NCBI GenBank assembly: GCA_025829515.1
Contig: GCA_025829515.1_4865.1
Source: a phage
Strand: one strand, 5' to 3'
DNA: 64,000 bases
The position numbers and the translations under genes were made by a program. Positions 19,063 to 39,114 of this stretch are shown here, one piece after another; the first letter of the stretch is position 1; every line of letters starts with the position of its first letter. The notes under the pieces were generated by a model. That model saw only the letters and a program-made list of their open reading frames with translations, had not been told where the DNA came from and did no database searches.

Positions 19063-19860
19063 ATGTCTTTTACTTCAAAACAGAATCTGCTAAAACTCAT
19101 CAACGAAGAGAATAAGATAAGCCCACCGCTTACCTTTGACGATGTTGATATCGGACTGCCGGAGGTTGTGTCAGTAGACGGTCGTGATTCGGAGGTAGTC
19201 CTTACCTCGAAGATGCGCGGTGATGAAGGTACGCAAGTGATTGTGGACTACCATCGTCGCCCATTAGAGGACTACCTTACAGGCGATGTTGCCTTTGGAG
19301 ACGAGGACGTGCAAACCACGCACGACTTACTCGCGGCGATTAACGAGCGTTTTAATCTGTCTATCTTACCTGAGGATATCGAAGATAACCCCATTGATGG
19401 ACAGACGCACACAGTCGTTGCTGTTGAAACTTCCCACGAGTGGCGAAGTCAAGCGGTCATCGAGCTGAAACCTGCTACACCTCTGGCAGAAGTAGTAACC
19501 AATACAGAGTTGAGCGGTCTTCTGTACCCGGATCACCAGGACATCCAGTTGGGTCAGGCGTATATCTATTCGCGTGACATCGATTGTAGCCACATCTCTC
19601 GTTTCCTGAGCCTCTTAGCGGTCGGTATCGAGGTAGATGACACGGCGTTGGCAATCGAACTCAACAAATGTGTTCCTGAGATTTGGGTAGCTGAAGATAC
19701 CCCATCCCCGTATAACCTGCGTGGTGCCACTGTCGTATTCGACGGCGTACCTGCAGACTTGCCGGGAGCAAATACGGCGTTCGCGAATGTCGTGTCAGTG
19801 CAACTGACCGATAAATGTACGAACTTCCAGGGCAGCCTCAACCTACACTTTAACAACTAG
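19063..19860 (+). CDS. paralog-family protein, short type (anchor N-domain plus variable C-domain), member 1
   Basis: shares N-terminal block, internal motifs and C-terminal LHFNN with six downstream genes. Confidence 0.7.
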   Translation: MSFTSKQNLLKLINEENKISPPLTFDDVDIGLPEVVSVDGRDSEVVLTSKMRGDEGTQVIVDYHRRPLEDYLTGDVAFGDEDVQTTHDLLAAINERFNLSILPEDIEDNPIDGQTHTVVAVETSHEWRSQAVIELKPATPLAEVVTNTELSGLLYPDHQDIQLGQAYIYSRDIDCSHISRFLSLLAVGIEVDDTALAIELNKCVPEIWVAEDTPSPYNLRGATVVFDGVPADLPGANTAFANVVSVQLTDKCTNFQGSLNLHFNN

Positions 19861-19870
19861 GAGGGTATAG

Positions 19871-20713
19871 GTGTCTATTTACGATAAGCCCTCGAAAGAG
19901 ATGTTGTTAGATGCTATTAACCGACAGAACGGATTAACGGCCAATCCACTCACATGGGAGCAGGTTGCAACTGGCTTCCCTGAGTCTGTCCAAACGCCTG
20001 GCGCTGACCGGAATACGCGTGTGCTCTTATACGGGTTGAACGGCAAGGGCTACAAAGGCAACGTTACGCTCGAATACGACCGTATCGAAATGGAAATTCT
20101 GTTCAGGAACGTAATACCGGTAGTCGTTGCCGACCCGGTAAATAAACTCTCTGAGTTGTTGCCGTTTCTGAATGCGAAATACGGCTTGTCTTTAGTTGCC
20201 GATGATATCGTTGACCAGTCAGTAAAAGATTTGGGAGAAAGCTGGTTAATCGATGTGACTATTAAGCCCGGTTGCTTGGCCTGGCAAGGTGGTTTCCGTT
20301 TACGCTTTGCGAAGTTCTTCCCGAACTTGGCGGATGTGGTGACGGATGTTGACCTCAGCGCAATAATCGCACCGTTCGTGGTTGCTAGTAAACCACAGGC
20401 CGAGTATGTGGCGTATGGTTACGATTGGACTGAACTGCAAAAACAGTTCACCACCGATTGGGTTTACAACCGTGCAATCACTGCAGCGGATGTTGAGTTG
20501 TTGAATGAAGTGGTGCCATTAAAGTTTGCATATGTGACGGGGGCGAATGCGCAACCTGAACAAATTGCACTCCAAGGTGCACGATTTATGGGGATAACTT
20601 CAGTCACACCGAACGATAGTTACAACCCCGATTATCAGCGTGTGGCGATTATCAAGCTAGCTGCGGACAGCAACTACGCCGGTAATCTCATCCTTCATTA
20701 TCTCCCGATATAA
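19871..20713 (+). CDS. paralog-family protein, short type, member 2
   Basis: GTG start with aggaggg SD; GADRNT motif, YGLSLVADDI, C-terminal LHYLPI. Confidence 0.7.
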   Translation: MSIYDKPSKEMLLDAINRQNGLTANPLTWEQVATGFPESVQTPGADRNTRVLLYGLNGKGYKGNVTLEYDRIEMEILFRNVIPVVVADPVNKLSELLPFLNAKYGLSLVADDIVDQSVKDLGESWLIDVTIKPGCLAWQGGFRLRFAKFFPNLADVVTDVDLSAIIAPFVVASKPQAEYVAYGYDWTELQKQFTTDWVYNRAITAADVELLNEVVPLKFAYVTGANAQPEQIALQGARFMGITSVTPNDSYNPDYQRVAIIKLAADSNYAGNLILHYLPI

Positions 20714-20723
20714 GGATTTTGAC

Positions 20724-21569
20724 ATGCCACTTTTAGCCACAGCTGAAAAGATTATTATCGCGGAAGTTAACGTCGAAAACAATCTCGATTTAAAAGTCGA
20801 GGATGTTGTTTTTGGTGTCCCTGCGATTCCAACGTCTGACGAAGACTTGGCAAAAGCTAACGGTCACAACGCGATGGTGCGCATTCAGGCATTGGCCACG
20901 GCTAATGCTATCGGTGCCACTACCGTGTATTACGATCGTGTTGACTTCGCAGACATGTTTACCGATCCGGACGGGATTCAACCTTTACGTGTTCCTGCGC
21001 GTCTCGATGCTGTTTACCAGATGCATGACGTGGTCGGGTTAATTAACCAGTATTACGGTCTCAGCCTTAAACCTGCAGATGTGGTGAATACCGAAATCGA
21101 CAGGAAGACATGGCGTGTGGATCTGGTTGCCACGCCCACTTCTTTAGGTTGGATAGGGCAACAACAGGTACAGCTGTTACCAGGCGATGCCTTGCTTCCT
21201 GCAAACTTCGAACCGTTAACAGTGACACCTTACGAGTACCCGTATTTCAACATCAAGGTCGGTCAAGGTGCAGTTTATTCGTATCCCTGGCGCTTTGATA
21301 ATTTCGCGGAGGAATTTCAACGACTAGGTGCTGCGATAACCACAGAACGTCTGGCACAGATTCTCAAAACGGTCACCGGGGATAACTGGACAACGTACCG
21401 TAACCCTATCGACTTTAACCTTCGTGAAGCCGTCGTCGTCTATAACGGGCGTAACAAAGCGGAATTACCAACCAACCCAGCAGTCGACAACGTGCTGATT
21501 GTGGAGCTGTCGTTGTACTGTCTGAATTTTGGCGGGCGTTTGTATTTGCATTACAACGACCCTGATTAA
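20724..21569 (+). CDS. paralog-family protein, short type, member 3
   Basis: YYDRVDF, YYGLSLKPADV, C-terminal LHYNDPD. Confidence 0.7.
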   Translation: MPLLATAEKIIIAEVNVENNLDLKVEDVVFGVPAIPTSDEDLAKANGHNAMVRIQALATANAIGATTVYYDRVDFADMFTDPDGIQPLRVPARLDAVYQMHDVVGLINQYYGLSLKPADVVNTEIDRKTWRVDLVATPTSLGWIGQQQVQLLPGDALLPANFEPLTVTPYEYPYFNIKVGQGAVYSYPWRFDNFAEEFQRLGAAITTERLAQILKTVTGDNWTTYRNPIDFNLREAVVVYNGRNKAELPTNPAVDNVLIVELSLYCLNFGGRLYLHYNDPD

Positions 21570-21590
21570 TCCTGAGTAAAGGAAGTAAGA

Positions 21591-22502
21591 ATGAAACCTT
21601 TAAACAAAACGTCCGATCAGCTGGTTCTGGATTTTATTAATGAGAAAAACCCAGACGCAGAACTGGAACTTTCTAAAATAACGCTCGGCACACCGACCCC
21701 TATTGTCGATGAAGGTGCCGATCGCAATACCAGCATGACCCTGACTGCGAAAAAGAACTCCGGGTACATCGGTACTCAGGACGTGACTTATAATCGCCTG
21801 GAAGGCGGTGCGCTGTTCCGTAATGTAACCGCATACCTCGACGTTAAACTGCCGAAAACCACCACCGACCTGCTGACGACCCTGAACACCCAATACGGAT
21901 TGAAGCTGACCGAAGACGATATCGTTCCGGCGGCTATTCCGGAAAATACCAACCCGCCGCTGACTAACCCGAACGATCCGGACCCAGCACCGGTTGACCA
22001 TGTCATTACCTTCAAAGAAGACTGCTACGCTTATCTGGGCAGCATCCCGGTTAAAATCGGTGCTAAGCCTCAGGTTGGTGAACGTCTGAGTCTGGTGGTA
22101 ACACAAACCAAGCTCGACGGCCTGGTTTACCCAGATGGTCCAAGCGAAGCGAAGGGTCAGGGCTACATCTACTCTTACGGTGTAGACTGCACAGCAATCG
22201 CAGCATTCCTGAAAGTACAGACGAAAGGTGTTATCGCTGGCGACTCTGCATTCCCGGTTGAGCTGAATAAAGTTGTGCCGGAACTGTGGGTTGCATCTGA
22301 TGAGCCTGCGGATTATAACCTGAAAGGTGCTAACGTGTTGTACGTTGGTTCTACTACTGACGATGGCACTGCTTCAGGCGACGATCCTAAGAAACCGGTT
22401 GAAGGTGCAAACACTGCTTACAACCAGGTTCTGCTGCTGCAGCTGGATGACACTCTGTGCACCAACTTCCAGGGCGTCATGTACCTGCACTTTAATGCCT
22501 AA
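21591..22502 (+). CDS. paralog-family protein, short type, member 4
   Basis: close paralog of member 1 (GQGYIYSYGVDC, ELNKVVPELWVASDEP, TNFQGVMYLHFNA). Confidence 0.7.
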   Translation: MKPLNKTSDQLVLDFINEKNPDAELELSKITLGTPTPIVDEGADRNTSMTLTAKKNSGYIGTQDVTYNRLEGGALFRNVTAYLDVKLPKTTTDLLTTLNTQYGLKLTEDDIVPAAIPENTNPPLTNPNDPDPAPVDHVITFKEDCYAYLGSIPVKIGAKPQVGERLSLVVTQTKLDGLVYPDGPSEAKGQGYIYSYGVDCTAIAAFLKVQTKGVIAGDSAFPVELNKVVPELWVASDEPADYNLKGANVLYVGSTTDDGTASGDDPKKPVEGANTAYNQVLLLQLDDTLCTNFQGVMYLHFNA

Positions 22503-22509
22503 TTAGGCC

Positions 22510-22556
22510 TCGCTGGGAGGAGGAAATCCTCCTCCTGGCTACTCCTTTCTTTTTTG
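22510..22556 (+). terminator. intrinsic terminator
   Basis: gggaggagg-aaat-cctcctcc hairpin followed by T-run. Confidence 0.7.
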
Positions 22557-22571
22557 GCCGAGGAGGCTATT

Positions 22572-23411
22572 ATGGCTTTATATAGTCTGTCTCAGCGACA
22601 ATATCTGTACGATGCGATTAATGCCGAAAACCCGGATGCTGTTCTACCGATGGGTTTAGACAATGCTATCATCGGTACGCCGAAAGCAATCACACCGACA
22701 GCAAGCGGTGCCAATACTGAGATTATCATTCGTGGTCGTCAAGGTCGTGGCTATATCGGTCCTCAGACGTTCCGTTATAAGCGCTTGTCGCTGAACGACT
22801 TATTTAAGAACATGACACCTCAGGTAACTGCACCGAATGCCTACGGTTGGTTGAACGTGGAGTCGAAACGTACTGCGTTTGCGCAGAACCTGAACGGTCG
22901 TTATGGATTAAACCTGGTTGCAGACGATATCCCAGAACAATACGTTTATCTGAACGTAAACAACACGATGCGCATTAACGCTAGCTGTATCCAATACACT
23001 GGCAGCATCACCTTTATGTCTATCCGGGGTAAGAATAGTCTCGAAGACCTCGTGGTAAACGACATCTTGTTGGCTTTGAACCACCCTGCAGCAGCAAGCA
23101 CTGGTAAGAAATACATGGGCTTCTTGACGTACGGGGAAGACTTTACCGATGAAGTGCAGGTTATGGCCTCGTTTAAGAACGGGCGAATGGATGTAGGAAG
23201 TAACTTTGATTTGGGTTACACGTCCAATCTGATGGCCACATTGGTCGCACGTGGGGTACCGTCGTTTGATCCGACGAACTGCACAATTACCCGCTACAAA
23301 ACGAGTGAGTTGGCGACCGCCAATAAAGCGTACGATAACGTATTGCTGATTACCGGCATTCAGAACGACCCGAAAGTAATCGGCGAGTGTATGTTGCACT
23401 ACAACAACTAG
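22572..23411 (+). CDS. paralog-family protein, short type, member 5
   Basis: start moved to ATG at 22572 (gaggagg SD); C-terminal LHYNN. Confidence 0.7.
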   Translation: MALYSLSQRQYLYDAINAENPDAVLPMGLDNAIIGTPKAITPTASGANTEIIIRGRQGRGYIGPQTFRYKRLSLNDLFKNMTPQVTAPNAYGWLNVESKRTAFAQNLNGRYGLNLVADDIPEQYVYLNVNNTMRINASCIQYTGSITFMSIRGKNSLEDLVVNDILLALNHPAAASTGKKYMGFLTYGEDFTDEVQVMASFKNGRMDVGSNFDLGYTSNLMATLVARGVPSFDPTNCTITRYKTSELATANKAYDNVLLITGIQNDPKVIGECMLHYNN

Positions 23412-23421
23412 GAATTAGCGA

Positions 23422-24309
23422 ATGGCTATTTATCAACCTTCTAAAGACGTCCTGTTGGCAGCAGTGAACGCACAGAACTCGCTTGCTGTTAAGATGACTG
23501 ACATCATCTGGTCCTCGCCAAAGGACATCCGTGGTACGGAGAAGGAAACGCTGACTAACCGTAACACGCAAATTAAAATTACGGCAGATGGGGTAACGGG
23601 CTCTACCTGGTCGGGTAAGAAAAATGTCTTCTACAACCGCATGAAAGTCGAAGACTTGTTAGTGCTGATTGGTGACACGTTGGCGATCGGCCCATCCAAC
23701 GAAACCTTGTATGCGGCCATTCCTGGACTGAACCAACGTTACGGTTTTGTTCTGGAAGAAGCTGACCTGCAGGACGCAGATATCGAATGGAACGGTGATA
23801 AGACCGAAGGTACTGTGCGCGTTGTTGCACATCCGGAGTCTATCGGCTGGGTTGGACAGGCGACATTTAAAGTCGTGAAAGGCGATGAGTCGTTAGTCTC
23901 TGCGGTCACTACTAACGTCCTGACCGGTCTGAAATACCCGAACGGTCAGATGGGTTCCGAAACCGTTACTGCGGTCATTGCAGAGGTTTATTCCTACCCG
24001 TACAACTTCACCAAATACCGTGATGAGTTGCTGGCATACGTGCCGGGTATTCTGTCCGGGCAGCCGTTAACGGATATGGTTAACCTGCTGAAAGATATCA
24101 CGGGTACTGCATGGGTAGCGACCACCTCCGCTTCCTACGGTTTGGCGGGCGCGGAGGTTATCAGCGTTGGTCTGAATGACCCTGTTGCAATGCCGACAAA
24201 CGCGAAGTACAAGTATGCGCTGGTGTTGAAACTGCCTGTTACCTGTACCACCATCGTCGGAACGTTGTATCTCCAGTTCAACGATCTGGACGATCCAAGC
24301 GAGGTATAA
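23422..24309 (+). CDS. paralog-family protein, short type, member 6
   Basis: TNRNT, YGFVLEEADL, C-terminal LYLQFNDLDDPSEV. Confidence 0.7.
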   Translation: MAIYQPSKDVLLAAVNAQNSLAVKMTDIIWSSPKDIRGTEKETLTNRNTQIKITADGVTGSTWSGKKNVFYNRMKVEDLLVLIGDTLAIGPSNETLYAAIPGLNQRYGFVLEEADLQDADIEWNGDKTEGTVRVVAHPESIGWVGQATFKVVKGDESLVSAVTTNVLTGLKYPNGQMGSETVTAVIAEVYSYPYNFTKYRDELLAYVPGILSGQPLTDMVNLLKDITGTAWVATTSASYGLAGAEVISVGLNDPVAMPTNAKYKYALVLKLPVTCTTIVGTLYLQFNDLDDPSEV

Positions 24310-24312
24310 TTG

Positions 24313-25140
24313 ATGATCAACTATGCTAAGCCGTCAAACGAGTTGGTCTTTGACCTCATTAACCGGGATAACCCAAACCTACCTATTAAAGCGTCGCCGG
24401 CAAACTGCTACGTGGAGAAAGTGACACAGGTTCCCGTTAATGCAGCTTCCAACAACCGCAATACGTCGGCACGCTTGCGCGGTATTCAGGGTTCTGGATT
24501 TCGAGACGCAATCACCGTTTACTACGACCGTGTGAACTTAGCGCGGTTATTGCCGTGGGGGCCTTCCGTCCAGGCGCAGTTCGTCACGTTTGACGCACCC
24601 AACCTCCACTCAGCCTTTTCGGTGCTCTTGGATACCTACGGAGTAAACTTCTCCGCAATCGATATCCAAAACTACTCACTGTTTGGTGCCAATACCCCAA
24701 ATTACACCAATACACAGACCATTGCAGCGCTATCGACATCTCCGGCTTATATCGGTTCTGCGACGTTGCGTTATAACCGTGGTTTACCGGTACTAGACAC
24801 TTCGGTGAAATCGGATGTCTTGAATGCGATTCAAGAGCCTATTTCACCGTCTCTCGGTAAGAAGTGTATTGATTTGTTGACGTACGGTATTGACTTTACC
24901 GCGTATAAAAACCTACTGACAGTAGATGCTTCTGGCCTACCGCAGTGGGCTGGTTTGCGTAAGGTGTTGGATGACCTGGGTATTCCGAACTACGCGGGGC
25001 CACTGAACAGCAACACCGTTCAGGATGTGCCGACTTCCACCGCTCAGTTCGCTAACAAATCGTACGACCGCGTGGTTATCCAAACGGGTATCGATGAGGA
25101 AGGCGTGAAAGGCGTGGCGTACTACCACTATAACAGCTAA
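24313..25140 (+). CDS. paralog-family protein, short type, member 7
   Basis: start moved to ATG at 24313; NNRNT, ITVYYDRVNL, C-terminal YYHYNS. Confidence 0.7.
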   Translation: MINYAKPSNELVFDLINRDNPNLPIKASPANCYVEKVTQVPVNAASNNRNTSARLRGIQGSGFRDAITVYYDRVNLARLLPWGPSVQAQFVTFDAPNLHSAFSVLLDTYGVNFSAIDIQNYSLFGANTPNYTNTQTIAALSTSPAYIGSATLRYNRGLPVLDTSVKSDVLNAIQEPISPSLGKKCIDLLTYGIDFTAYKNLLTVDASGLPQWAGLRKVLDDLGIPNYAGPLNSNTVQDVPTSTAQFANKSYDRVVIQTGIDEEGVKGVAYYHYNS

Positions 25141-25143
25141 GTG

Positions 25144-25171
25144 TAGGGGCTCTTCGGAGCCCCATCTTTTG
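25144..25171 (+). terminator. intrinsic terminator
   Basis: ggggctc-ttcg-gagcccc hairpin followed by atctttt. Confidence 0.7.
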
Positions 25172-25187: not shown

Positions 25188-26600
25188 ATGCTATTTTACT
25201 CGAAGGAGTCGGCACTGCTTGTATACGACCAAGTCAATCGGGATAACCCTGATTTAGTTATTAAGCTGACGCCGGCTATCGCTGCTTTAACCAGTGGCCC
25301 AACCTCAGTTACGTTAAACCAACGTAACACCAAAGCTGTTTTCACCGGGTATCCAGGGACAGGTGTACAAGGTAATGTTACCGTGTACTACGACCGGATT
25401 AACCTGGCCACCTTATTTAATTTTGTGCCGACTGTGGCTATCAAAGACACAGTCTTAACGGTACGAGACGCGTTACCTGCAATAAACGACGCATTAGGAC
25501 TTACATTAGTTGCTTCTGATTTGCAGTCACCTGACGCAAGTTTACCTAAACCGAGCGTTTCGCCGCAGACGTTGAAATTAAATATCTCAGGCAATTGCCC
25601 TGCGTTTACAGGCAGCTTAACGATACGTTATACCGTCCCGAGTGGTGCAATTTACCCCGATTCTGGACCTGGCCCTAAAACGTTGCTGCAAGGTAACACT
25701 ATCGCGGGTTATTTCGGAACAACCAGAACTGCAGAGTTGTTTACACACTCTCAACTTCTTAATGCCACTATATCGGCCGGTGCGTTACCACCGGTACATT
25801 CTGGTGCCGAAGGTTGGTACAAGTTCTTTTACCAGGGTAGGGTTATTTACCTCCCGATCAGTCCTGTCGCTGGCTCCATCTCCTGGAATACGTTATATAC
25901 AAACGGACTCGTTTACGGAACAGACGATAACGGTAAATACCCTGCAGCGACGCCCGTTAACCAGGGACGCATCATTAGCTTTACAGGCGCAGACAACAAA
26001 AGGTTTTACTTCCGTGTTCGTCTACCTAGTGCCGGGAAAGACCCATACGTCAGCGGCACCCCAACTGCCGCTGAGTTAGCAGGTAGTGAGTTTGAGATGT
26101 TCAACTTTCTGTATAATGGAACGTGGGACAAACCGATTAACAGTTACTGGACGCTGTTCTGTTTATTGAAAGATACACTGAAGACCAACGTCGCCCATCA
26201 TCGCATGGCGACGTTGTCTGGAGCAAGTTGGACAAACTTAGAAAAATCATCGAGTGCGGGCAACTACTACTGGTTCCCGGTGCTGGAGTTGGTGGATAAG
26301 TCCACAGTTACCTTGGGTTTAGAAGATATCCACGGTACGGCAGATTACAGTCTCCAACCGTGCAGCGTGTCCGCAGAAAACACATTTAGTCTCAAGCCGT
26401 TAGTGCTCGGTAATCCGGATACTACCGATTTCGAACCGGTAGTTGTTACTTCAGAAAACAGTTTCGCACTGCATCCGCCTGCTTTAATGCTGCCGAAGAC
26501 AGTCGACTTCCAACCTATTGCGGCTACCGCTGAAATGTATACGCCCCCTGACAAGACAACGTTAACGTCTCTTAACGGTGAACTGGACGGCTTTAAGTAG
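25188..26600 (+). CDS. paralog-family protein, long type (anchor N-domain, GPGP core domain, linker, C-terminal NGELDGF tag), module 1
   Basis: NQRNT, VTVYYDRINL, DSGPGPKTLL...GYFG...ELF, YWFPVLELVD, ends SLNGELDGFK. Confidence 0.7.
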   Translation: MLFYSKESALLVYDQVNRDNPDLVIKLTPAIAALTSGPTSVTLNQRNTKAVFTGYPGTGVQGNVTVYYDRINLATLFNFVPTVAIKDTVLTVRDALPAINDALGLTLVASDLQSPDASLPKPSVSPQTLKLNISGNCPAFTGSLTIRYTVPSGAIYPDSGPGPKTLLQGNTIAGYFGTTRTAELFTHSQLLNATISAGALPPVHSGAEGWYKFFYQGRVIYLPISPVAGSISWNTLYTNGLVYGTDDNGKYPAATPVNQGRIISFTGADNKRFYFRVRLPSAGKDPYVSGTPTAAELAGSEFEMFNFLYNGTWDKPINSYWTLFCLLKDTLKTNVAHHRMATLSGASWTNLEKSSSAGNYYWFPVLELVDKSTVTLGLEDIHGTADYSLQPCSVSAENTFSLKPLVLGNPDTTDFEPVVVTSENSFALHPPALMLPKTVDFQPIAATAEMYTPPDKTTLTSLNGELDGFK

Positions 26601-26611: not shown

Positions 26612-27610
26612 ATGTCTTTTACTTTGCGTTGGAAAAATCCAAACGTAATCTCTACGGTAGTAAAAATCTACCGTGATGTTAAAGATATCACACCAAGCGC
26701 TTTGCCTGAACCGATTGCAACGCTCTCAAACGGCGAGACAGAATGGCGTGATACCACCGCCACACCAGGCGCAACCTATTATTACCTTCTGACGGTAACC
26801 GCCAACGGTAAAACAGTGGCATCGTCTAGCCAGAAATATACCATTGAACTGAAGCGGGGAATCGGTCCAATGACTATTCTAAACGGTGACGACCGTTTAG
26901 GGTTTATGGGTGCGGTTCCTTACGACGAACAGTGGCTTCCGTCGCAAATGCCACCTGCATTTTTGGCGATGTTCCCTAACCTACTAACCGATCGTGTGGC
27001 GTTGTATAAATTTACCCGAAACGGGAAGATCTATTACATGCTATCTAGCACGTCGCAGTTCCCGAATACGCCTGTGGACTGGGCTTCCCTCTATCAAGCT
27101 GGTTTAGTCTACGGTACAGGCGATGCTGGCCCAGAGAACGGCCATGGAACGCTACCGGCCACTCCACAAGACGCTAAGATAGTCCACAGAGGGGATACGT
27201 ACATTATGCGTCTTCCTCGCGGCCTGACGACGTCTAGCGAGTCTCCTGCGTATCCTTTCGTGGCTGACTACAATGGGAAAACCCACGATGAAATCGCTTC
27301 TCTAACCAACCCGTGCGAGTATAACGATTTACTTTACACGATGGTTAACGAGGTGCCGAAGAAACAACGTTGGGCTAACTGGGCAACAATCGGTTATACT
27401 TATCTGGGACAGGGTACTTTGGGAACCTTGGCACAGTATTTCGGCGGTGGTGTTCTCTGTATGGAACACGACACCGCGGAAGACCGTGTGCTCCATCGTG
27501 GTATTTTTAACAATGCCGGTGGAACACCCGTATCCACGATTCAGCGTATAAACTATTTATCACCCACCACGAAAGGGCGCTACTACCCTATCTTTGAACT
27601 GGTCGAGTAA
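26612..27610 (+). CDS. module 1 B-type protein (fibronectin-III-like N-domain plus core domain)
   Basis: N-terminus RWKNP...IYRD...TYYYLLTVTANG (FN3-like pattern, inferred); core ends YYPIFELVE. Confidence 0.7.
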   Translation: MSFTLRWKNPNVISTVVKIYRDVKDITPSALPEPIATLSNGETEWRDTTATPGATYYYLLTVTANGKTVASSSQKYTIELKRGIGPMTILNGDDRLGFMGAVPYDEQWLPSQMPPAFLAMFPNLLTDRVALYKFTRNGKIYYMLSSTSQFPNTPVDWASLYQAGLVYGTGDAGPENGHGTLPATPQDAKIVHRGDTYIMRLPRGLTTSSESPAYPFVADYNGKTHDEIASLTNPCEYNDLLYTMVNEVPKKQRWANWATIGYTYLGQGTLGTLAQYFGGGVLCMEHDTAEDRVLHRGIFNNAGGTPVSTIQRINYLSPTTKGRYYPIFELVE

Positions 27611-30974: not shown

Positions 30975-30976
30975 TC

Positions 30977-31876
30977 ATGCCTATTACATTAAACTTTGCA
31001 CAACGGAAGCCACAGGCGCTCGATAACATTGAAATCTATCGCAAGACGCCGGGCAACGCCACCATTGATGTTAATGCACCGGGAACGCCTCTGGCAACCC
31101 TTCCGGGTGACGCTACATCGTACGAAGACAACGCTGTGGAAAACAACACCACTTACCGTTATTGGATTGCTGCGGTTAAAGACGGTGAGCGTGTCTTCAA
31201 CACCCCTACCGCCCAAGGGTTCTTTTTAGACACCGGGCCTGGCCCCCAGAAACTGTTATACGGCGACTGGCACGCTGGATACTTTGGAACAGTAACGCCA
31301 GCAGAGTTATTCACTAACGCGGAACTGAACAGCCTCGTGGTGAATATGTTCAGTTCCGCCGTTGGTGCCTGGCATAAGTTCATTTACAAAAACCGTATTC
31401 TGTTTATGTCCGATAACTCGATAATATACGCTAGCCCGCAGTTCATTTATAACCAGGGGCTGATGTACGGCCAGGATGGCAACGGATATGTGCCGAGCTG
31501 GGCTAGTGCACGTAACCAACGCCGCACGGTGACGAAAAACGGTTACGAATACGTGGTGCGCTTGCCGTATTTGTTCGACTACAAATACTGGACGTCTTTC
31601 GTTGGAGGCGGTAACACCGAGTTGTATCTCGACGGTGAGTGGTTTAACACCTTCGCGCGCCTGTACAACTACAGTGGGCAGTTTCCGCGCTTTGACGACC
31701 TTCCGGTCGGTTCAATCGATTCGGTTACTGCCCAACAATCTGCATTCTTTGCGGCTATGAATAACTCGTTCAGTCAGTGGTACAACCGTCCACCTTACCC
31801 AGAGTCGCCGACATGGAGTAACTACGGTACCACTACAGTGCGTTCTATTGCGGTACTTGAACTCGTTCTGCCTTAA
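30977..31876 (+). CDS. module 2 C-type protein
   Basis: start moved to ATG at 30977 (gagga SD); paralog of 27620-28543; ends AVLELVLP. Confidence 0.7.
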   Translation: MPITLNFAQRKPQALDNIEIYRKTPGNATIDVNAPGTPLATLPGDATSYEDNAVENNTTYRYWIAAVKDGERVFNTPTAQGFFLDTGPGPQKLLYGDWHAGYFGTVTPAELFTNAELNSLVVNMFSSAVGAWHKFIYKNRILFMSDNSIIYASPQFIYNQGLMYGQDGNGYVPSWASARNQRRTVTKNGYEYVVRLPYLFDYKYWTSFVGGGNTELYLDGEWFNTFARLYNYSGQFPRFDDLPVGSIDSVTAQQSAFFAAMNNSFSQWYNRPPYPESPTWSNYGTTTVRSIAVLELVLP

Positions 31877-31887
31877 CAGGAGACTTC

Positions 31888-33330
31888 ATGGGATTGTATA
31901 GCGCACCCGAACTGGAATTACTCTGCCAACAAGTCGTAAGGGATAACCCTGAACTCGCAGGAAGAATCAGCGCTGATTCGATTGGGGTGAGGGGTGTTCC
32001 TGCCGAGACCACTAAGAATGGTCGTAACACGGTAATTACGTTGGTAGGTAAACCCGGTAAAGGTTTCTCTGGGGAGTGCACGGTTTATTACGACCGTTTA
32101 ACATTATCAGATCTATTTAAAATAGCTCCGCGCGTCTACGTACCACAAACGGCCAAGACCGTGCGGGATCTTCTCCCAGCTCTACGTGATTTATACGGTG
32201 TTTGGTTATCTGATAGCAGTGTACAGTCGGTAGACGCGCCTATCAAATCGCTGGCAACGCCAACACGTATTAATTTAACCGCGTATAATAGCGTATGCTA
32301 TCGCGGCTATATCCCGGTCGATTATTTGAATGAAGCCGTAGGGTACTATCCAGATTCTGGGCCAGGCAATAAATATTTGTTGGCAGGGGACAGCACAAAC
32401 GGATACTTCGGTCACGTTTCTCAGCAAGAGTTATTTACCTTTGCTGAACTAAACAACCTAATTCGTCCTGATGTTTCCCCAACGAAAATGACTTTCGAGT
32501 GGTTGAAATTTTTCAAGGACGGTAAGATTGTTTATCTACCGACTACCGGAACGTTAACAGCAACCTGGACGGCCCTTTATCAAGCGGGTGCCATTTTCGG
32601 TACAGGTGACGCTGGTCCGTATCCAGACGGTATCGAACCTGTTGACCAGGCTTTGATTGTCACGAAAACTGAGAATAACAAGACGCATTATTACCGTGTC
32701 TCCGTTCCGGTTAGCCCTGATTTATCAAAGGCCACGCCGTTGTGGCTTATTTCACAACTCGGTGACGGTTCTACGGGTGGCGACTGGGCAAATGACACCA
32801 CGTTAACCAGAACCACCGTCTTCTTCACGCAACAACTGTTAACCGGGGGTAACCCTGTTAAAGTACAACGTTGCAATATGCGCGGTGGCTCAGTTGAATG
32901 GGTAACCCTTGCAGATACCACTTACTGGTGGCCTGTTTTAGAGGAAATCAATAAGGACGACATCGTCTTACCTTTAGCTGATGTGGAAGGGGATGTTGTG
33001 TGGCGCGTTAGGGTTATTCCTAATGTACCATCACCACAACCTGATAGCATTCGCCCTCTTGCAGTCGAGGTTGCGACAACAGATGCGCCGAGACCTCTAG
33101 CAACAACTGCGGAACAGGTGGAAGAACCTATCAGCCCGATTGTGGTGGGTGAACCAAACGTCGATACTGCGCTGCCGTTATCGACAGTGTCGAAGAGCGT
33201 AGGTACAGTTAGGCCGATGGTTGTACTTGAACCACACGTCGACGCACCGCGTCCACTACCGCCTACTCAGGCAGAACCTCCACTTAAAACAGATTTAGCA
33301 ACCGCGAACGGTGAGTTGAACGGCTTCTAA
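31888..33330 (+). CDS. paralog-family protein, long type with NGELNGF tag, module 3
   Basis: CTVYYDRLTLSDLF, DSGPGNKYLLAGDSTNGYFG, Pro-rich DAPRPL repeats, ends ATANGELNGF. Confidence 0.7.
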   Translation: MGLYSAPELELLCQQVVRDNPELAGRISADSIGVRGVPAETTKNGRNTVITLVGKPGKGFSGECTVYYDRLTLSDLFKIAPRVYVPQTAKTVRDLLPALRDLYGVWLSDSSVQSVDAPIKSLATPTRINLTAYNSVCYRGYIPVDYLNEAVGYYPDSGPGNKYLLAGDSTNGYFGHVSQQELFTFAELNNLIRPDVSPTKMTFEWLKFFKDGKIVYLPTTGTLTATWTALYQAGAIFGTGDAGPYPDGIEPVDQALIVTKTENNKTHYYRVSVPVSPDLSKATPLWLISQLGDGSTGGDWANDTTLTRTTVFFTQQLLTGGNPVKVQRCNMRGGSVEWVTLADTTYWWPVLEEINKDDIVLPLADVEGDVVWRVRVIPNVPSPQPDSIRPLAVEVATTDAPRPLATTAEQVEEPISPIVVGEPNVDTALPLSTVSKSVGTVRPMVVLEPHVDAPRPLPPTQAEPPLKTDLATANGELNGF

Positions 33331-33340
33331 GGAGTAACAG

Positions 33341-34339
33341 ATGGCTTTCACACTACGCTGGAAAAATGAAAATCCGGCAGGTTCAATTGTTAACATTTAT
33401 CGGGGCACGGCTAAAATAAATACAGCCGCATTACCAGCCCCTATTGCAACTTTAAGTAATGGCGAAACGGAATGGACGGACGAAACCGTTATTCTTAACA
33501 CCCGTTACTGGTATCTTTTAACAGTAACTGTTAACGGTCGTACCGTAGGTAGTCCACAAAAATCCATTGTCATTAAAAACCGTCGTGGTGTGGGTGGCGT
33601 CGACCAGATTAACTATTCCGATACTGACGACTTGGCGTTTCTGGGGCAGTTGCCGTTCGAAGAACAGATGACCTATGACGCGTTGCCTGCAGGCTTTCGT
33701 GCATTAACAGGGATATCGGGCACGGGCACGCTAATCATGAACAAGTTTTATCGTCATGGTAAAGTTTACTACATGATGAACAGCGGCGGACGATTTAACT
33801 CTACACTTTACTCGTGGAATGACATTTATAACGCGGGGCTTGTGTACGGTGTTGATGGATTTGGTCCTGATAACGGACGTGGGGATTTGGCAGGTGTTGA
33901 CCAGAGTGGGTTGTTTGAATGGCAAGGCGACACCTATCGGATGCGATTGCTGCGCGGTTTAACCGACGGGGACGAACCGACAGTAATGACATTGGATGAA
34001 TCGTTGCGAAACGCAGACCATGATGACTTGGAATATGGTCGCTGCGAATATAACGATTTTGTTTATCCGTTCGGAGAATGTATCCCTAACAAACAAATGC
34101 TCCCTAACTGGACTAATATTAGTCCAGCGTCCATTTATGGGAGCGGTAGCGCTTACCAAGGCAAAGGTTTCTTGTGCCAAGAACGTGATCCTGAATCGGG
34201 ATTAGTTCTGGTTCGCGGGTCTGCGCCTATCGATTCAAGCATAACCAATACGTCGAAACGTAACCTCTCCCAAGTTACGTTAGTTGATAGTGCTGAGAAG
34301 GTCGGTTTGTACGCATTCGTTATCGAGTTAGTGGAGTAA
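33341..34339 (+). CDS. module 3 B-type protein
   Basis: paralog of 26612-27610 and 29988-30974; ends YAFVIELVE. Confidence 0.7.
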   Translation: MAFTLRWKNENPAGSIVNIYRGTAKINTAALPAPIATLSNGETEWTDETVILNTRYWYLLTVTVNGRTVGSPQKSIVIKNRRGVGGVDQINYSDTDDLAFLGQLPFEEQMTYDALPAGFRALTGISGTGTLIMNKFYRHGKVYYMMNSGGRFNSTLYSWNDIYNAGLVYGVDGFGPDNGRGDLAGVDQSGLFEWQGDTYRMRLLRGLTDGDEPTVMTLDESLRNADHDDLEYGRCEYNDFVYPFGECIPNKQMLPNWTNISPASIYGSGSAYQGKGFLCQERDPESGLVLVRGSAPIDSSITNTSKRNLSQVTLVDSAEKVGLYAFVIELVE

Positions 34340-34342
34340 AAC

Positions 34343-35245
34343 ATGTCGATTATCTTAAACTGGAAACAACAGTCAGGTCAGACTTTAGATTCCATTGAAA
34401 TCTATCGTTACGACAACCCTAGACAAAGTGTTAACCCAGTAGCACCGGGGGAACCCATTGTAACACTACCAGGTAACACAACGACGTACGAGGACAAGAC
34501 CACCGAAGCGTATAAAACGTATCAATATCGCATCGTGGCGGTAAAGGGCACTGAAAAGGTTATGGGGCTGCCGATTGTACAGGGCGACTTTCCAATGACA
34601 GGGCCCGGCCCACAGGAACTTATTCGTGGCGATTGGCATCGTGGCTACTTTGGCACACTGACAAACAAAGAATTTATTCTTAACCATGCCGAGCTGAATG
34701 GTTTAATTGGCTTTAATGCCTGGAACCAAGCTCCAACATTGTTCCATAAATTCGTTTTCAAAGGACGCATTCTGTTCATTCCTGACACGGTGACCCGTTT
34801 AGGGACGTCGTGGGAAGAACAATACCGGCAAGGTCTGGCCTGGGGAACAGATGACTACGGTTTCCCGCCAGGGGGCGTCACTACCACTAACCAGCGTCGG
34901 ACATTTAATAAAGACGGTTACGAGTATGTGGTACGCTTGCCTCGACTCGGAGACTACAGTTATGGGCACAGCACCTACCTAAGCAGCGGTGGTTATTTTC
35001 AAGACGGCGAGTGGCACAACACGTTCGCAAGCTTGTTCCGGTACGCGGGCGTCGTAAGACGTTTTGGCGACTTACCGATGCGCTCCGGCGGTAGTCCAAC
35101 CGATTCAAGCGCAACATTGTTTGCCAACGGTCGTGACATCTACAACGCCTGGTACTATCGCAGCAACTCACCAGACTCACCATCGTATACCTATTCGACC
35201 GATAGCGCGTCGGTAGTCCACGTTATCGAATTGGTTCTTAGCTAA
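34343..35245 (+). CDS. module 3 C-type protein
   Basis: paralog of 27620-28543; MTGPGPQELIRGDWHRGYFG; ends HVIELVLS. Confidence 0.7.
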   Translation: MSIILNWKQQSGQTLDSIEIYRYDNPRQSVNPVAPGEPIVTLPGNTTTYEDKTTEAYKTYQYRIVAVKGTEKVMGLPIVQGDFPMTGPGPQELIRGDWHRGYFGTLTNKEFILNHAELNGLIGFNAWNQAPTLFHKFVFKGRILFIPDTVTRLGTSWEEQYRQGLAWGTDDYGFPPGGVTTTNQRRTFNKDGYEYVVRLPRLGDYSYGHSTYLSSGGYFQDGEWHNTFASLFRYAGVVRRFGDLPMRSGGSPTDSSATLFANGRDIYNAWYYRSNSPDSPSYTYSTDSASVVHVIELVLS

Positions 35246-35256
35246 CAGGAGCTAAT

Positions 35257-35553
35257 ATGGGGTTTTACTCATCCACTGCACTTGAGCTGTTGTGTCGGCT
35301 CATTCAGCGGGATAATCCCCAACACGCAGGTCGAATCAGCGCAGATTCAATTGGGGAGTGTACGATCTATTACGATAAGTCGTTAAGCAGTAACACAGTG
35401 GCCGATGTTACCACCGCATCCAACTCGTTCGCTAATAAAGCGTACGGCCGCGCGGTTATCCAAACTGACGTCGAAGCAGCTGGAGTTAAAGGGATAGCGT
35501 ACTTCACCATAACAGCTAAAAATAGGCCCCGAAGGGCCTATTTTCTTTTTTAG
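35257..35553 (+). pseudogene. chimeric, frameshifted remnant of the paralog family
   Basis: first ~33 codons match long-type N-termini, then jumps to a short-type C-terminus; a 1-nt difference relative to the YYHYNS-stop ending removes the stop and the frame runs into the terminator hairpin. Confidence 0.6.
35521..35553 (+). terminator. intrinsic terminator
   Basis: aataggcccc-gaag-gggcctatt hairpin followed by ttcttttttt. Confidence 0.8.
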
Positions 35554-35562
35554 GACGTTGCA

Positions 35563-36882
35563 ATGATCAACTATAACAAACCTGTCATGCAGCTGGTTTG
35601 GGATCAGATTAATCGTGATAACCCGCAGCTCAAGAAACCACTCAACGCAACCAACGTGGCGTTATTACAAGGTCCTTTAACCAATGCCTTGCGCGATGGC
35701 CGCAACAGCCGTATAGTGGTAAACGGATTACAGGGTGGCGGTTACAGCGGTAAGATGGACATCTACTACGACCGCTTAAACCTTTCGCAGTATTTTAAAG
35801 GCGTCAGCGTACCGGTTAAAGTACCTTATCGGGCGACGTCCTACCGCGACATCATCGACCGGATTTCCGCAGCTTGTGGGCTGGTGCTTACTGCTGACGA
35901 TTTAACGTATCCTGACAGCCAGTTTGCAATGATCACTGTGGCAACGGGCGATCGGACGGTGGCGATTAAATCGGATAACCCCGCATTCACGGGTCACATT
36001 CCTATTAGCTTTATTCGTGAAGAGCCCAGCTTTGCCGACTTGTACCACACCACCGAAACCGGAGCTTGGGAACCCATGGATGTTTACAGCACGGTCTATC
36101 GACTCGACTGGAGCATGTACACCCAACAGATAATCAATATTCCAATGGGTACCCCGCTGCGACTAAACAGTAACTCGTACATGACCCAGTTCATCGCGGC
36201 GCTGTCGGCATGGTCGGGCATCCCGTTCACTATCGGTAATGCTGCTACCGATAACCCGTATGACCTCTATGGGTATGTCGCTACACGCAATAACAACCCA
36301 GGCTTAGACCCTGATATGCGTGGGGAGTACAATTACTGCGTGAAGTTGACGCCACCTGAGGATATGGGTAATCTCCGTCGTCCGTTCTTCTTGCACTTTG
36401 GTCCGAAAAATAACGTGGCCTATTTGGCGCAGGAAAAGGACGTCGAACGTTATGCGCGTTACATGAGGTTCCGGGAAACCAGCTCAAATTCGATGAGCGT
36501 CACGTTGTATCAAAACGAGTACGTGTTGACTCGGGCAGAATCGCCTGAAACTGCGGATGATTTAACGGGTTCCCCGTATGGCACTCGATACTGTACCGGG
36601 AGTATTCGACGGCTGATGCAACACGCGTTTCCGACCGAAGAGATGTTCCAAGAAAGTATTGCTAACCGACGTCGGGTACTGTACCACACTGCTTACACCA
36701 CCACGACATCAGCTATTACTTACCAGGGACTATACCGTAACGGATACCAATCCAAACAAATGACGAGCCTCTACTCGAATTACTGTAACTATTTCATCTA
36801 TTACGACCCAAGCAAAGGCGGCTATATGGTCTACAGTCCATATAGCAAAACCGCCCCGGTCCCTTGGTATCCAGCGCTATAG
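35563..36882 (+). CDS. paralog-family protein with a distinct C-terminal domain
   Basis: N-terminus MINYNKP...INRDNP...DIYYDRLNLS is family-like; C-terminus YYD..G.M...PY.K.AP.PW shared with the next gene. Confidence 0.65.
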   Translation: MINYNKPVMQLVWDQINRDNPQLKKPLNATNVALLQGPLTNALRDGRNSRIVVNGLQGGGYSGKMDIYYDRLNLSQYFKGVSVPVKVPYRATSYRDIIDRISAACGLVLTADDLTYPDSQFAMITVATGDRTVAIKSDNPAFTGHIPISFIREEPSFADLYHTTETGAWEPMDVYSTVYRLDWSMYTQQIINIPMGTPLRLNSNSYMTQFIAALSAWSGIPFTIGNAATDNPYDLYGYVATRNNNPGLDPDMRGEYNYCVKLTPPEDMGNLRRPFFLHFGPKNNVAYLAQEKDVERYARYMRFRETSSNSMSVTLYQNEYVLTRAESPETADDLTGSPYGTRYCTGSIRRLMQHAFPTEEMFQESIANRRRVLYHTAYTTTTSAITYQGLYRNGYQSKQMTSLYSNYCNYFIYYDPSKGGYMVYSPYSKTAPVPWYPAL

Positions 36883-36896
36883 ACTAAGGTGTCACC

Positions 36897-39074
36897 ATGT
36901 CCTACACTCCTGATTTAGTGGCGACCGTGATTCGGTCGCTCAACCGTAAAAACGCGGTCGCCAAAGCAGTAGACCCCGCTAACGTACGCCTGGTGTCCGT
37001 GGCGCATCGTGACGAAAAAACCCTAGACGTCACACTGACAGGGGGTCCGGGGTATTCAAGTTACGGTCAAATTACGGCCCAAGTCACGAAGCAAAATATT
37101 GCTGATTATTTCGCCAAGGTTAAGTTGGATGCCATTCCCACTTGTGCGTCCATCCACGAACTGTTGCCGCATTTAGACACTCTACTAGGGATTACCTTTT
37201 TAACTGACGACTTTGAAGACCTGCCTATCACTTGGACAAACAATGCTGCGTGTATCACGTTCCAGGCGAAACAGACAAGTCTTATCTGGTACGGCAGCCA
37301 AACGCTAGATGTGATAAACGGTGACGTGGATATCAACACCGTCTACACTGTTACCAACATCATTCTCACGCTAAAGGCTGCGAATAAACAGCAGTGGATT
37401 AACTTCTACTCTAATGCAACCAAACGGATCGTGGATCTTGATAAAGTCGATGTCAGCTCCCCGATGTCCCCGGAGGATATAGGCCAAACCTCTGCGTATA
37501 ACAGCGTCGTAGCTTTGACCGCTAGACCGGGGAGCGGGATGTTTGGAACGAAGTATGTGTTCTTTTCACGTAACAAACTCGAGACATATGCAGGCAAAAC
37601 CACATACGTCCCGGATGATTTCACCGGTAGCCTGCACGATGCTCTGGCCATCGAGACACTCGGCATTCGGAGTGTTTTTGATGTAAACGAAATTGCTCCT
37701 GTAGAGAACCTGGCAGGCGAGTGGCCGAGACAAGTGCAATTGGCACCCGTAGAGGGTTCGTACAAAGTCATGGGCAGTGCCACGTTGAATGTGGCACGCT
37801 ATCAAGATAACGAGCAAACCCTTAACCTGAACTACACAACTACGTCGCAACTTTCGGACAGCTACTGGGCCACAACGTTGACCAACCATGCGGCGTGCGG
37901 GCGTTTGTTTGTTAACGTGACCGTAGATGCGGGGGCTTTCGTTTATCGCGACAGCAACCTGAAACCGACGTTCGTTATCGACGAATTGCCGCAAATTGGC
38001 GAGGTGGTTTGGAACTTCGTTAACCGGGGAACCATTCTTGGTCGTGGTGGTTCGGGTATGGTCTACTCTATGCCTGCGAACACATCAGCGGACGGAGCTG
38101 ACGCAATCCACATTACCGATGCCTTCCGCGGCAAAGTCACCATCGAAAACTACGGCACCATCGCCGGAGGTGGGGGCGGGGGCGACTACTATGCGTTTAG
38201 CACCACCAAGATCGGTGGAGCTGGTGGTGCGCCACTCGGGACAGGCGCGGTGGTGCCCAGCGGCACCAATAACCGTAACGGCTTAGCTGGGTCCCGTGAC
38301 AAAGGCGGTGCTACTCAGTTAGTCGTCGCACAATTTACCGGCTACCAGAGTCGCTACTATGGCGGTCCGGGTGGGGATTGGGGCCAGCCGGGACGATATA
38401 CAGCGTTCGAGCAATGGAACACCCCGGCTACCGGCTCGCCGATCTATGTCTACGGTCGTGAAGACGGGATGTCATGGACTCGCCCTGGGATGGCAGGCGA
38501 AGCCGTCGGTGGGAATAAAAGTATCGTCAACTGGGTATCCGTCGGAACGGTGAAACCGAATGTCACCAACGAGTACCAAGAGTTCCTCGACTACCTCGCA
38601 GATTTAGATGCCAACCGATTGGCCAGTGCGGATGGGATAGATAAAGTCACCGACCCAACCAAGCCTGTAGTTGTGGAGTTCTTAGGTACGATTATTTCAG
38701 GTACGCTGTTCCAAAAGCAAAACATACCCGGCGGTTTGGTGGGAACACCATACGGCGATGCTGTAGCCAACTTACCAGCCACCACATTGTTTGGTATCAT
38801 GGCACACTGTGTATCGGAGTTTGATATTGTGCACGACACTTGGCGTTACAACCGCGCGGTGATGTTCACGCTAAAACCCGCACCTACCGGGGCGATTAGC
38901 CTCGCTGTGGAACGCAACCGGGTGAAATCGGCTACCAGTAGTGCACCGGTGGAGAAGTTCTACGTCGATCGCTTCGTGTATTACGATGCGTATCTCGGTA
39001 AAATGATGGAATGTAATCCGTATACCAAATCTGCCCCTAAACCGTGGGTGCGGCCAACGATACCGTTATCGTAA
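36897..39074 (+). CDS. paralog-family protein with Gly-rich region (725 aa); candidate receptor-binding protein
   Basis: Gly-rich tract IAGGGGGGDYYAFSTTKIGGAGGAPLGTG; C-terminal domain shared with 35563-36882; stop is followed in frame by FNEELDGFKA-stop. Confidence 0.65.
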   Translation: MSYTPDLVATVIRSLNRKNAVAKAVDPANVRLVSVAHRDEKTLDVTLTGGPGYSSYGQITAQVTKQNIADYFAKVKLDAIPTCASIHELLPHLDTLLGITFLTDDFEDLPITWTNNAACITFQAKQTSLIWYGSQTLDVINGDVDINTVYTVTNIILTLKAANKQQWINFYSNATKRIVDLDKVDVSSPMSPEDIGQTSAYNSVVALTARPGSGMFGTKYVFFSRNKLETYAGKTTYVPDDFTGSLHDALAIETLGIRSVFDVNEIAPVENLAGEWPRQVQLAPVEGSYKVMGSATLNVARYQDNEQTLNLNYTTTSQLSDSYWATTLTNHAACGRLFVNVTVDAGAFVYRDSNLKPTFVIDELPQIGEVVWNFVNRGTILGRGGSGMVYSMPANTSADGADAIHITDAFRGKVTIENYGTIAGGGGGGDYYAFSTTKIGGAGGAPLGTGAVVPSGTNNRNGLAGSRDKGGATQLVVAQFTGYQSRYYGGPGGDWGQPGRYTAFEQWNTPATGSPIYVYGREDGMSWTRPGMAGEAVGGNKSIVNWVSVGTVKPNVTNEYQEFLDYLADLDANRLASADGIDKVTDPTKPVVVEFLGTIISGTLFQKQNIPGGLVGTPYGDAVANLPATTLFGIMAHCVSEFDIVHDTWRYNRAVMFTLKPAPTGAISLAVERNRVKSATSSAPVEKFYVDRFVYYDAYLGKMMECNPYTKSAPKPWVRPTIPLS

Positions 39075-39114
39075 TTTAACGAGGAACTTGACGGGTTTAA
39101 AGCCTGAAGATAAT

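Follow-up and report, generated by a model that had tools for sequence, protein, structure and literature searches.

A DUF7941 (paralog family B) gene array in an SPN3US-type jumbo phage: modular virion proteins and a conflict between head and baseplate

We describe an array of 19 tightly packed open reading frames (ORFs) at positions 19063-39074 of a 64,000-nucleotide stretch of phage DNA (GenBank assembly GCA_025829515.1, contig GCA_025829515.1_4865.1; hereafter the window), which its sequence identifies as the gene cluster for the DUF7941, or "paralog family B", proteins in a chimallivirus of the SPN3US type. We consider it probable, at about 0.6 for the external-filament model as a whole, that the products of this array form external modular filaments, of which the anchor in SPN3US is likely on the head or neck. 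The array is already known: publications on it go back to 2016, and Pfam includes an entry for the family. The original prediction, which was made from the letters alone and whose author knew of no described family with this exact motif set, is therefore superseded by SPN3US paralog family B (2016/2017) and by Pfam PF25613 (DUF7941). The conflict between a head and a baseplate location is the only interesting point that our analysis leaves.

In a megablast search against GenBank phages, 19000-39200 matched Seoulvirus genomes along 99% of its length and at 97-99% identity, with Proteus phage 7, Salmonella phages 1252 and SPFM, and SPN3US among these relatives, and we assign the window to a Seoulvirus, an SPN3US-like jumbo phage, at ~98% nucleotide identity. 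Gene order follows the SPN3US locus tags one for one (19063-39074 corresponding to gp138-gp155), and the array proteins are colinear with those of SPN3US at 93.8-99.5% amino acid identity, as orthologues of paralog family B members. By the same orthology, 9813-10346 is gp122, 41967-42494 is gp160, and 10823-13840 is the tail-associated gp124. In several SPFM records (e.g. SPFM1, 5-9, 12, 14, 15 and 20) the matches to the array are fragmented and of low coverage, which looks like the product of frameshifted or error-rich assemblies rather than biology.

The proteins gp138-gp155 and gp160 have all been detected in SPN3US particles purified on caesium chloride (CsCl), in a comparison of wild-type virions with tailless 255(am107) heads over two gradients (step and buoyant density), with normalised head to wild-type ratios of 0.89-1.67, compared to 1.39 for the capsid protein (Scheuch et al. 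2023). True tail proteins gave ratios of at most 0.07 in the same study, except SPN3US gp38, tentatively a tail protein, at 0.63; gp237 was tail-like, and gp122 was found in the wild type only (Scheuch et al. 2023). An independent tailless mutant, 64_112(am27), showed the same retention of family B in heads, and in the DNA-full heads of am59, a third mutant, the head proteins were comparable in composition to those of tailed particles, with family B not separately listed. Family B members are not among the proteins processed by the prohead protease (Ali et al. 2017), and the array genes encode unprocessed virion proteins. The suggestion of surface-displayed virion fibre proteins in the original prediction is thus borne out insofar as all the SPN3US orthologues are in virions, but its tail or fibre location is contradicted for SPN3US by the tailless-head ratios. 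Spectral counts yield copy numbers of ~535 for gp160, ~390 for gp141, ~180 for gp143 and 20-85 for the others, which are only rough because the portal control was overestimated ~5-fold; the pattern is one of few abundant and many rare members.

Many but not all of the array proteins share an N-terminal domain. A hidden Markov model (HMM) was trained on residues 1-150 of the seven short genes, with no other sequences, and used to search the 751 six-frame ORFs of at least 40 amino acids (aa) in the window. The model recovered the three long genes (E = 2e-25, 4e-24 and 2e-18), gp154 (1e-22), gp155 (5e-14, with a partial second copy), gp122 (7e-14; six-frame ORF 9744-10343) and gp160 (9e-9; ORF 41934-42491), and beyond these nothing under E = 10 among the 751 window ORFs. 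Profile-profile comparison (hhalign) of the short with the long N-domains gave a probability of 99.9% and E = 1.5e-32, compared to 0.2-0.6% for negative controls. The shared block, for which the absence of a significant profile alignment had been named beforehand as a possible refutation, is therefore real in the long genes, in the pair at 35563-39074 and in the dispersed members, as had been predicted. PF25613 (276 positions; gathering threshold 27 bits) is above threshold in 14 ORFs, at 43-293 bits, namely the seven short and three long genes, gp154, gp155, gp122 and gp160, and has no match in the six genes that we call B and C. It spans the whole of the short genes (230-293 bits), positions 1-153 only in the long genes and 1-170 in gp154, and covers the N-terminal parts of gp155, gp122 and gp160. 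Of the predicted 19 or more paralogs with a common N-block, then, the 19 tightly packed ORFs stand, but the N-block is found in only 12 intact genes and one fragment of the array, six genes being without it.

The seven short genes (19063-25140), at ~265-303 aa, can be aligned over their full length and share both the N-block and the LHY/FN ending that had been noticed in these ~280-aa proteins. The same ending is present in phiKZ gp127, which the short-gene profile matches at E = 5e-24 and whose fold (PDB 9XQD) the N-domain has. A tblastn search with the N-domain matched 124 of 50,697 phage records; among the 60 N-domain records listed, all genomes are ~197-322 kb in size (Erwinia, Salmonella, Serratia, Klebsiella, Goslar and similar phages). 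The N-domain, like the lectin-like domain described below, is restricted almost wholly to jumbo genomes of chimallivirus type.

All 19 ORFs are on the + strand with gaps of 2-69 nt, an SD-like (Shine-Dalgarno) motif lies upstream of 18 of them, and the members form a dense all-against-all BLASTP network. Seven short genes are followed by three triplets of a long, a B and a C gene, a chimeric fragment, gp154 and gp155, and hairpins followed by T-runs, which lie between genes at three places on the + strand (18916, 25146 and 35519), bracket the three blocks. The prediction of a single strand with good SDs holds on these data, and that of few terminators is roughly right. For three genes, the SPN3US annotation gives the likelier starts (22572, 24313 and 30977). 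Matches to sigma-70 promoters within the array were fewer than in shuffled sequence (17 compared to 22) and were rejected as promoters, a count that is uninformative because the phage uses its own RNA polymerases. The features are as follows, with wild-type (WT) peptide-spectrum matches (PSM) from SPN3US virions where given.

18916-18931, + strand: hairpin and T-run, terminator-like, intergenic, just before the first array gene.
19063-19860, + strand: gp138, short-type DUF7941 with N-domain, linker and C-domain (PF25613 230 bits, full length; 99.2% aa identity to SPN3US).
19871-20713, + strand: gp139, short-type DUF7941 (PF25613 238 bits; alignment of short genes).
20724-21569, + strand: gp140, short-type DUF7941 (PF25613 270 bits).
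21591-22502, + strand: gp141, short-type DUF7941 (PF25613 286 bits); most abundant long-form member in SPN3US virions (2239 PSM, WT).
22572-23411, + strand: gp142, short-type DUF7941 (PF25613 268 bits); ORF opens at TTG 22554, annotated ATG 22572.
23422-24309, + strand: gp143, short-type DUF7941 of mid-abundance (PF25613 276 bits; 1038 PSM).
24313-25140, + strand: gp144, short-type DUF7941 (PF25613 293 bits).
25146-25163, + strand: hairpin and T-run between the short-gene and triplet blocks.
25188-26600, + strand: gp145, long type, with DUF7941 N-domain (1-150), putative C-type-lectin-like middle (~155-375) and disordered repeat tail ending NGELDGF.
26612-27610, + strand: gp146, B type, with FN3 and putative lectin-like middle domain, without DUF7941.
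27620-28543, + strand: gp147, C type, with FN3-like N-terminus and putative lectin-like middle with a GPGP..YFG motif (phrog_1062; BLAST/HMM).
28557-29975, + strand: gp148, long type, tail 26 aa shorter than in SPN3US (PF25613 residues 1-150; 78-bp indel at ~29805).
29988-30974, + strand: gp149, B type (BLAST/HMM).
30977-31876, + strand: gp150, C type (BLAST/HMM); ORF opens at TTG 30941, annotated ATG 30977.
31888-33330, + strand: gp151, long type (PF25613); its 5' end is one junction of the EC001 triplet deletion.
33341-34339, + strand: gp152, B type (BLAST/HMM).
34343-35245, + strand: gp153, C type (BLAST/HMM).
35257-35553, + strand: chimeric gene fragment, ~33 aa of long-type N-terminus and ~64 aa of short-type C-terminus (BLAST; PF25613 24 bits, sub-threshold).
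35519-35544, + strand: hairpin and T-run between the triplet block and gp154/gp155.
35563-36882, + strand: gp154, full DUF7941 and a ~130-aa C-terminal domain common to gp155 (PF25613 and phrog_1037, residues 1-287; phrog_6409, 308-436; BLAST).
36897-39074, + strand: gp155, DUF7941 N-domain (and partial second copy), glycine-rich gp38-adhesin-like part (373-553) and the shared C-terminal domain (PF25613 82 bits; PF05268 66 bits).
9813-10346, + strand: gp122, dispersed member, DUF7941 N-domain only, beside tail genes gp123/gp124 (PF25613 66 bits; HMM 7e-14).
41967-42494, + strand: gp160, dispersed member, N-domain and linker ending NGELDGFV (PF25613 43 bits; HMM 9e-9; 1750 PSM).

The six genes without the N-block (26612, 27620, 29988, 30977, 33341 and 34343) fall into two subfamilies, B and C. 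An HMM of these genes matches nothing but the middle part of the long genes, in all three of them (E = 2e-26 to 8e-17; hhalign 99.8%). The family really consists of two linked sets, the DUF7941 proteins on the one hand, and on the other the FN3 and lectin-like proteins, whose only common domain is with the long DUF7941 genes. In an AlphaFold 2 model of 25188-26600, made from an alignment of 34 sequences, residues 1-375 are predicted with confidence and 378-470 are disordered. The middle domain of the long, B and C proteins has a putative C-type-lectin-like fold, the likeness being to the fold class only. The FN3 domain of the B and C genes is a seven-strand beta sandwich that is superposable on FN3 modules. 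Proteus phage 7 labels the B and C genes as glycosyl hydrolase; no catalytic domain was found in them, and this label probably reflects the FN3 module. The further idea that the DUF7941 C-domain is a reduced version of the lectin-like middle domain, taken from their shared G-x-x-Y-P-D start, was rejected (hhalign probability 0.2%).

The last two genes of the array carry different modules again. Residues 373-553 of gp155 match PF05268, the T-even gp38 adhesin, over profile positions 61-214 of 218 (66 bits, cut-off 25; E = 6e-18), with a weak direct match to S16 gp38 (6f45_D, E = 0.0018). Positions 1-60 of PF05268, which hold the module that attaches to the gp37 tip, are unmatched in gp155, and the DUF7941 N-domain stands in their place; we read gp155 as having a gp38-like domain without being a gp38 orthologue. 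The proteins gp154 (~308-436) and gp155 (~556-719) also have in common a C-terminal domain of ~130-160 aa (phrog_6409, function unknown; 28% identity by BLAST), which is not in other array genes and occurs as a stand-alone family of ~170-aa proteins in other phages. The expectation that the variable parts are binding modules is in part borne out by the FN3 and gp38-adhesin-like folds and by the putative C-type-lectin-like fold.

The fragment at 35257 had been taken for a pseudogene headed by the N-block, of which it does keep ~33 aa, the remainder being instead a short-type C-terminus. Its first 33 residues resemble the long-type N-terminus of 28557 (BLAST E = 4e-10) and its last ~64 residues the C-terminus of 24313-25140 (50% identity, BLAST); PF25613 matches it over positions 228-272 at 24 bits, under the cut-off, and its ORF runs into the 35519 hairpin.

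Together, the modules comprise a ~150-aa DUF7941 N-domain, a conserved linker and, optionally, either the DUF7941 C-domain or a lectin-like, FN3 or gp38-like glycine-rich domain. The linker follows directly after the N-domain, as ..VVTxTxLxGLxYP in the window and as ..L/V-x-G-L/N-x-Y/F at the same place in Goslar gp22/31/33/34. The related ..NGELDGF stands at the C-terminus of gp160 and of each of the three long proteins, and the C-terminus of Goslar gp23 reads ..ADGFV...; the linker and NGELDGF motif may be a docking peptide. In Goslar, DUF7941 is described as chimallivirus-specific, with 10 members of which gp22 (~580 copies) and gp23 (~2140 copies) are quantified; AlphaFold 3 (AF3) models show head-to-tail docking, with linker and C-domain on the next N-domain, and purified gp22 forms filaments in negative stain (Basu et al. 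2026 preprint). In both architecture and abundance, the counterpart of Goslar gp22 is gp141 (best window match, E = 6e-12), and that of Goslar gp23 is gp160. The homology to phiKZ gp127, of which the N-domain is modelled in the baseplate periphery, along with the Goslar gp22 AF3 models and negative-stain filaments, supports a role of the shared N-domain as a docking or polymerisation module, in line with the common docking domain that had been proposed.

On this basis, we propose that the linker (and C-domain) of one subunit would dock on the N-domain of the next, and that the abundant plain subunits gp141, gp143 and gp160 would in this way polymerise head to tail, giving filaments that are long, flexible and external. 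The less abundant members would be built into such filaments or cap them and would expose binding modules, namely those of the three long/B/C sets, which are lectin-like, and that of gp155, which is gp38-like. Being without DUF7941, the B and C proteins are probably carried by the long protein of the triplet to which they belong, by way of the lectin-like domain that they have in common with it. Such filaments would allow a multivalent first contact with the host surface or flagellum. We favor an external placement because FN3, lectin-like and gp38-like domains are display or adhesion folds that would be odd inside a capsid, and the anchor is likely the head or neck, not the baseplate alone, because in SPN3US the assembly stays with tailless heads.

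The best of the competing explanations, which we nevertheless regard as unlikely, is the one proposed for Goslar, in which all filaments are at the six peripheral lobes of the baseplate; the family would then appear in heads as a co-purification artefact of sticky, self-assembled filaments. This explanation draws on the phiKZ gp127 N-domain being fitted in the outer baseplate periphery, on the Goslar model itself, where gp31/33/34 flank gp32, the homologue of phiKZ gp139, on the tail-side behavior of SPN3US gp122 and gp237, and on SPN3US baseplates and fibres having been seen cross-linked to flagella. It has to contend, however, with 18 array proteins and gp160 that remain with CsCl-purified heads at ratios indistinguishable from that of the capsid protein, with the same result in 64_112(am27) and overall comparable am59 heads; furthermore, filaments of free protein would not be expected in the same band as DNA-filled heads.

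Still less probable is that the family consists of internal head proteins that are packaged in the capsid and are either injected or organise the DNA, following the tentative label "Head ejection?". While presence in the head fraction, the abundance of some members and the large internal protein mass of SPN3US heads would all fit such a role, the FN3, C-type-lectin-like and gp38-adhesin-like domains are typical of extracellular binding or display, one homologue forms filaments, and another sits outside on the phiKZ baseplate. An ordered decoration or cement (Hoc- or Soc-like) at fixed sites of the T=27 shell is the least likely of all, since its apparent merits (presence in the head fraction, six FN3-bearing members like Hoc-type decorators, and a Hoc-like central knob on SPN3US hexamers at 30 A) are countered by the high-resolution Goslar capsid maps, in which the hexon centre is the C-terminal barrel of the capsid protein itself and the only decorators are gp77 and gp146, which are not DUF7941 proteins, by copy numbers mostly far under 260 or 1,615, and by the lack of any obvious set of sites for nineteen different decorators.

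Several points weigh against external filaments on the head or neck as well. The polymerisation step comes from one preprint and from a homologue, Goslar gp22, with 25% identity. The binding of B and C proteins to the long ones is our own inference, and spectral counts for the three triplets (20/20/27, 59/75/29 and 29/61/35) agree only within ~2.6-fold; they are only roughly equimolar and, given the portal overestimate, prove nothing about stoichiometry. Mass spectrometry puts the family in the head fraction, for which the earlier label was "Head ejection?" (Ali et al. 2017), and no external density for it has been reported on SPN3US, Goslar or phiKZ capsids. The high-resolution Goslar capsids are without DUF7941 density, although flexible filaments would average out in such maps. 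Finally, it is SPN3US tails, not heads, that have been seen cross-linked to flagella.

A more specific version of the head- or neck-anchored filaments, which we put forward only tentatively and think somewhat unlikely as a whole, is that DUF7941 heteropolymers on the head or neck, not the baseplate, would carry the lectin-like triplets and the gp38-like adhesin as a head-borne adhesion cloud that catches flagella or surfaces. SPN3US infection is flagellum-dependent. If such a cloud exists, both the "head ejection" label and the "baseplate fibre cloud" model need revision, and the triplet copy number (3 vs 2, see below) would tune binding targets.

We turn to variation among isolates, since rapid variation had been part of the original prediction. 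The array proteins are 93-100% identical in amino acid sequence among isolates from Salmonella, E. coli and Proteus (SPN3US, Proteus phage 7, EC001 and SPLA5c), no lower than the flanking genes, and rapid diversification of the array was rejected on these per-gene values. What changes is the triplets: three are present here, in SPN3US and in Proteus phage 7, and two each in EC001, Lh1B, SPLA5c and SPLA3. EC001, an E. coli phage, is without 31906-35494, a deletion whose junctions fall where gene 31888 and the 35257 fragment resemble each other at their 5' ends, and SPLA5c is without 30493-33853, with junctions inside two B genes that leave a split hybrid gene. These junctions indicate that each phage lost one long/B/C triplet by recombination between paralogous segments, and the isolates differ by copy number, not by sequence. 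In gp148, a 78-bp (26-aa) indel at ~29805-29812 relative to SPN3US and Proteus phage 7 (472 aa here, 498 aa there) falls in the disordered, internally repetitive C-terminal tail, and 130 bp of the 35257 fragment are absent from SPN3US and Proteus phage 7. No template/variable repeat pair of the diversity-generating retroelement (DGR) type was found in the array, where the direct repeats are paralog segments that are only 60-79% identical, and DGR-like targeted variation of the lectin fold was rejected.

Among the neighboring genes, gp122 (9813-10346), gp123 (10346-10819) and gp124 adjoin, and gp123 and gp124 are tail proteins in SPN3US mass spectrometry. The gp124 orthologue (10823-13840, + strand, 1005 aa) bears the labels "tail-associated protein", "tail protein" and "glycosyl hydrolase" and has no Pfam match. 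Since gp122 lies directly upstream of tail genes and is seen only in tailed particles, it may be a baseplate-side member of the family. Directly 3' of the array on the + strand, relatives label 39117-39770, 40059-40700 and 40710-41225 as an endolysin/peptidoglycan-domain protein, a "tail assembly chaperone" and a second endolysin; the three genes downstream of the array, gp156-158, are at or under the virion threshold in SPN3US mass spectrometry. Downstream of gp160, on the opposite strand, lie two radical SAM superfamily genes (43752-45080, - strand, and the next gene; SPN3US gp163/gp164).

Taken as a whole, the idea that these virion proteins combine a common docking domain with variable modules for binding agrees in large part with current work: its virion, docking and binding components stand, whereas rapid variation, an undescribed family, an N-terminal anchor on all 19 proteins and a tail location in SPN3US do not. 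Family B of SPN3US has been said to be perhaps the largest set of paralogs that any phage genome contains, its members being virion proteins present in tailless heads (Thomas et al. 2016 J Virol; Ali et al. 2017 Front Microbiol; Scheuch et al. 2023 Viruses). Ali et al. 2017 gave it its name with 20 members (gp83, gp138-154, gp160 and gp237) and gp122 as a candidate, and noted that gp141 and gp160 are highly abundant, with the tentative label "Head ejection?". The genes described here are the same (gp138-gp154, gp160 and candidate gp122), in the same order and at 93-100% amino acid identity, except that the 35257 chimeric fragment is longer and the gp148 tail shorter in the window. Those papers, however, treat one PSI-BLAST-defined group of unknown function, with no split between DUF7941 and FN3/lectin-like proteins, and do not list gp155 as a member, whereas here gp155 carries DUF7941.

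Residues 373-553 of gp155 resemble the glycine-rich receptor-recognition part of T-even/S16 gp38 (PF05268, PDB 6F45), with GGGGG and GGAGG motifs, but gp155 lacks the gp37-binding N-part, in place of which it has the DUF7941 N-domain, and differs further in its extra C-terminal domain and in having no long-tail-fibre partner. With the C-type-lectin-fold receptor binders of phages and predators (Bordetella phage Mtd, the DGR variable proteins TvpA/TaqVP, the fibre tip Bd2740 of Bdellovibrio, and Legionella Lcl), the array proteins have in common only the fold class of the putative lectin-like domain, without sequence similarity, a DGR or evidence of trimerisation. There is no homology to the flagellotropic phages phiCbK and 7-7-1, with their head filaments or fibres. 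SPN3US heads have so far shown no filament, and the flagellum contacts observed for SPN3US are through baseplate and fibres; SPN3US is nevertheless flagellum-dependent like these phages, and a flexible filament linked to its head would work similarly.

A further comparison is with DUF7941 in Goslar (gp22/gp23) and phiKZ (gp126/gp127), where Pfam, profile and fold all place the proteins in the same domain family and the linker is conserved. As here, Goslar has two very abundant plain subunits and rarer fusions to binding domains. The counts differ, at 10 DUF7941 members in Goslar, ~3 in phiKZ and ~13-15 in this window along with six associated non-DUF7941 genes, as do the fused modules, which are lectin-like, FN3 and gp38-like here but carbohydrate-binding (CBM), hydrolase (GH) and leucine-rich repeat (LRR) domains in Goslar, where a "fibre cloud" anchored at the peripheral baseplate is proposed (Basu et al. 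2026 preprint). In the phiKZ atlas of 2026 (PDB 9XQD), gp127 is docked in all six star lobes, at the place where the gp139 band ends. SPN3US proteomics thus points to heads, whereas Goslar and phiKZ point to the baseplate, and two unconnected bodies of work exist on one family, SPN3US genetics and proteomics (tailless heads, function unknown) and the 2026 baseplate filaments of Goslar and phiKZ, of which the Basu et al. 2026 preprint makes no mention of SPN3US. The SPN3US amber mutants and clean head preparations offer a system where both the anchoring site and the role could be settled, and the domain dissection given here provides handles for this in the FN3 and lectin-like triplets, the gp38-like gp155, and the putative linker and C-terminal docking motif.

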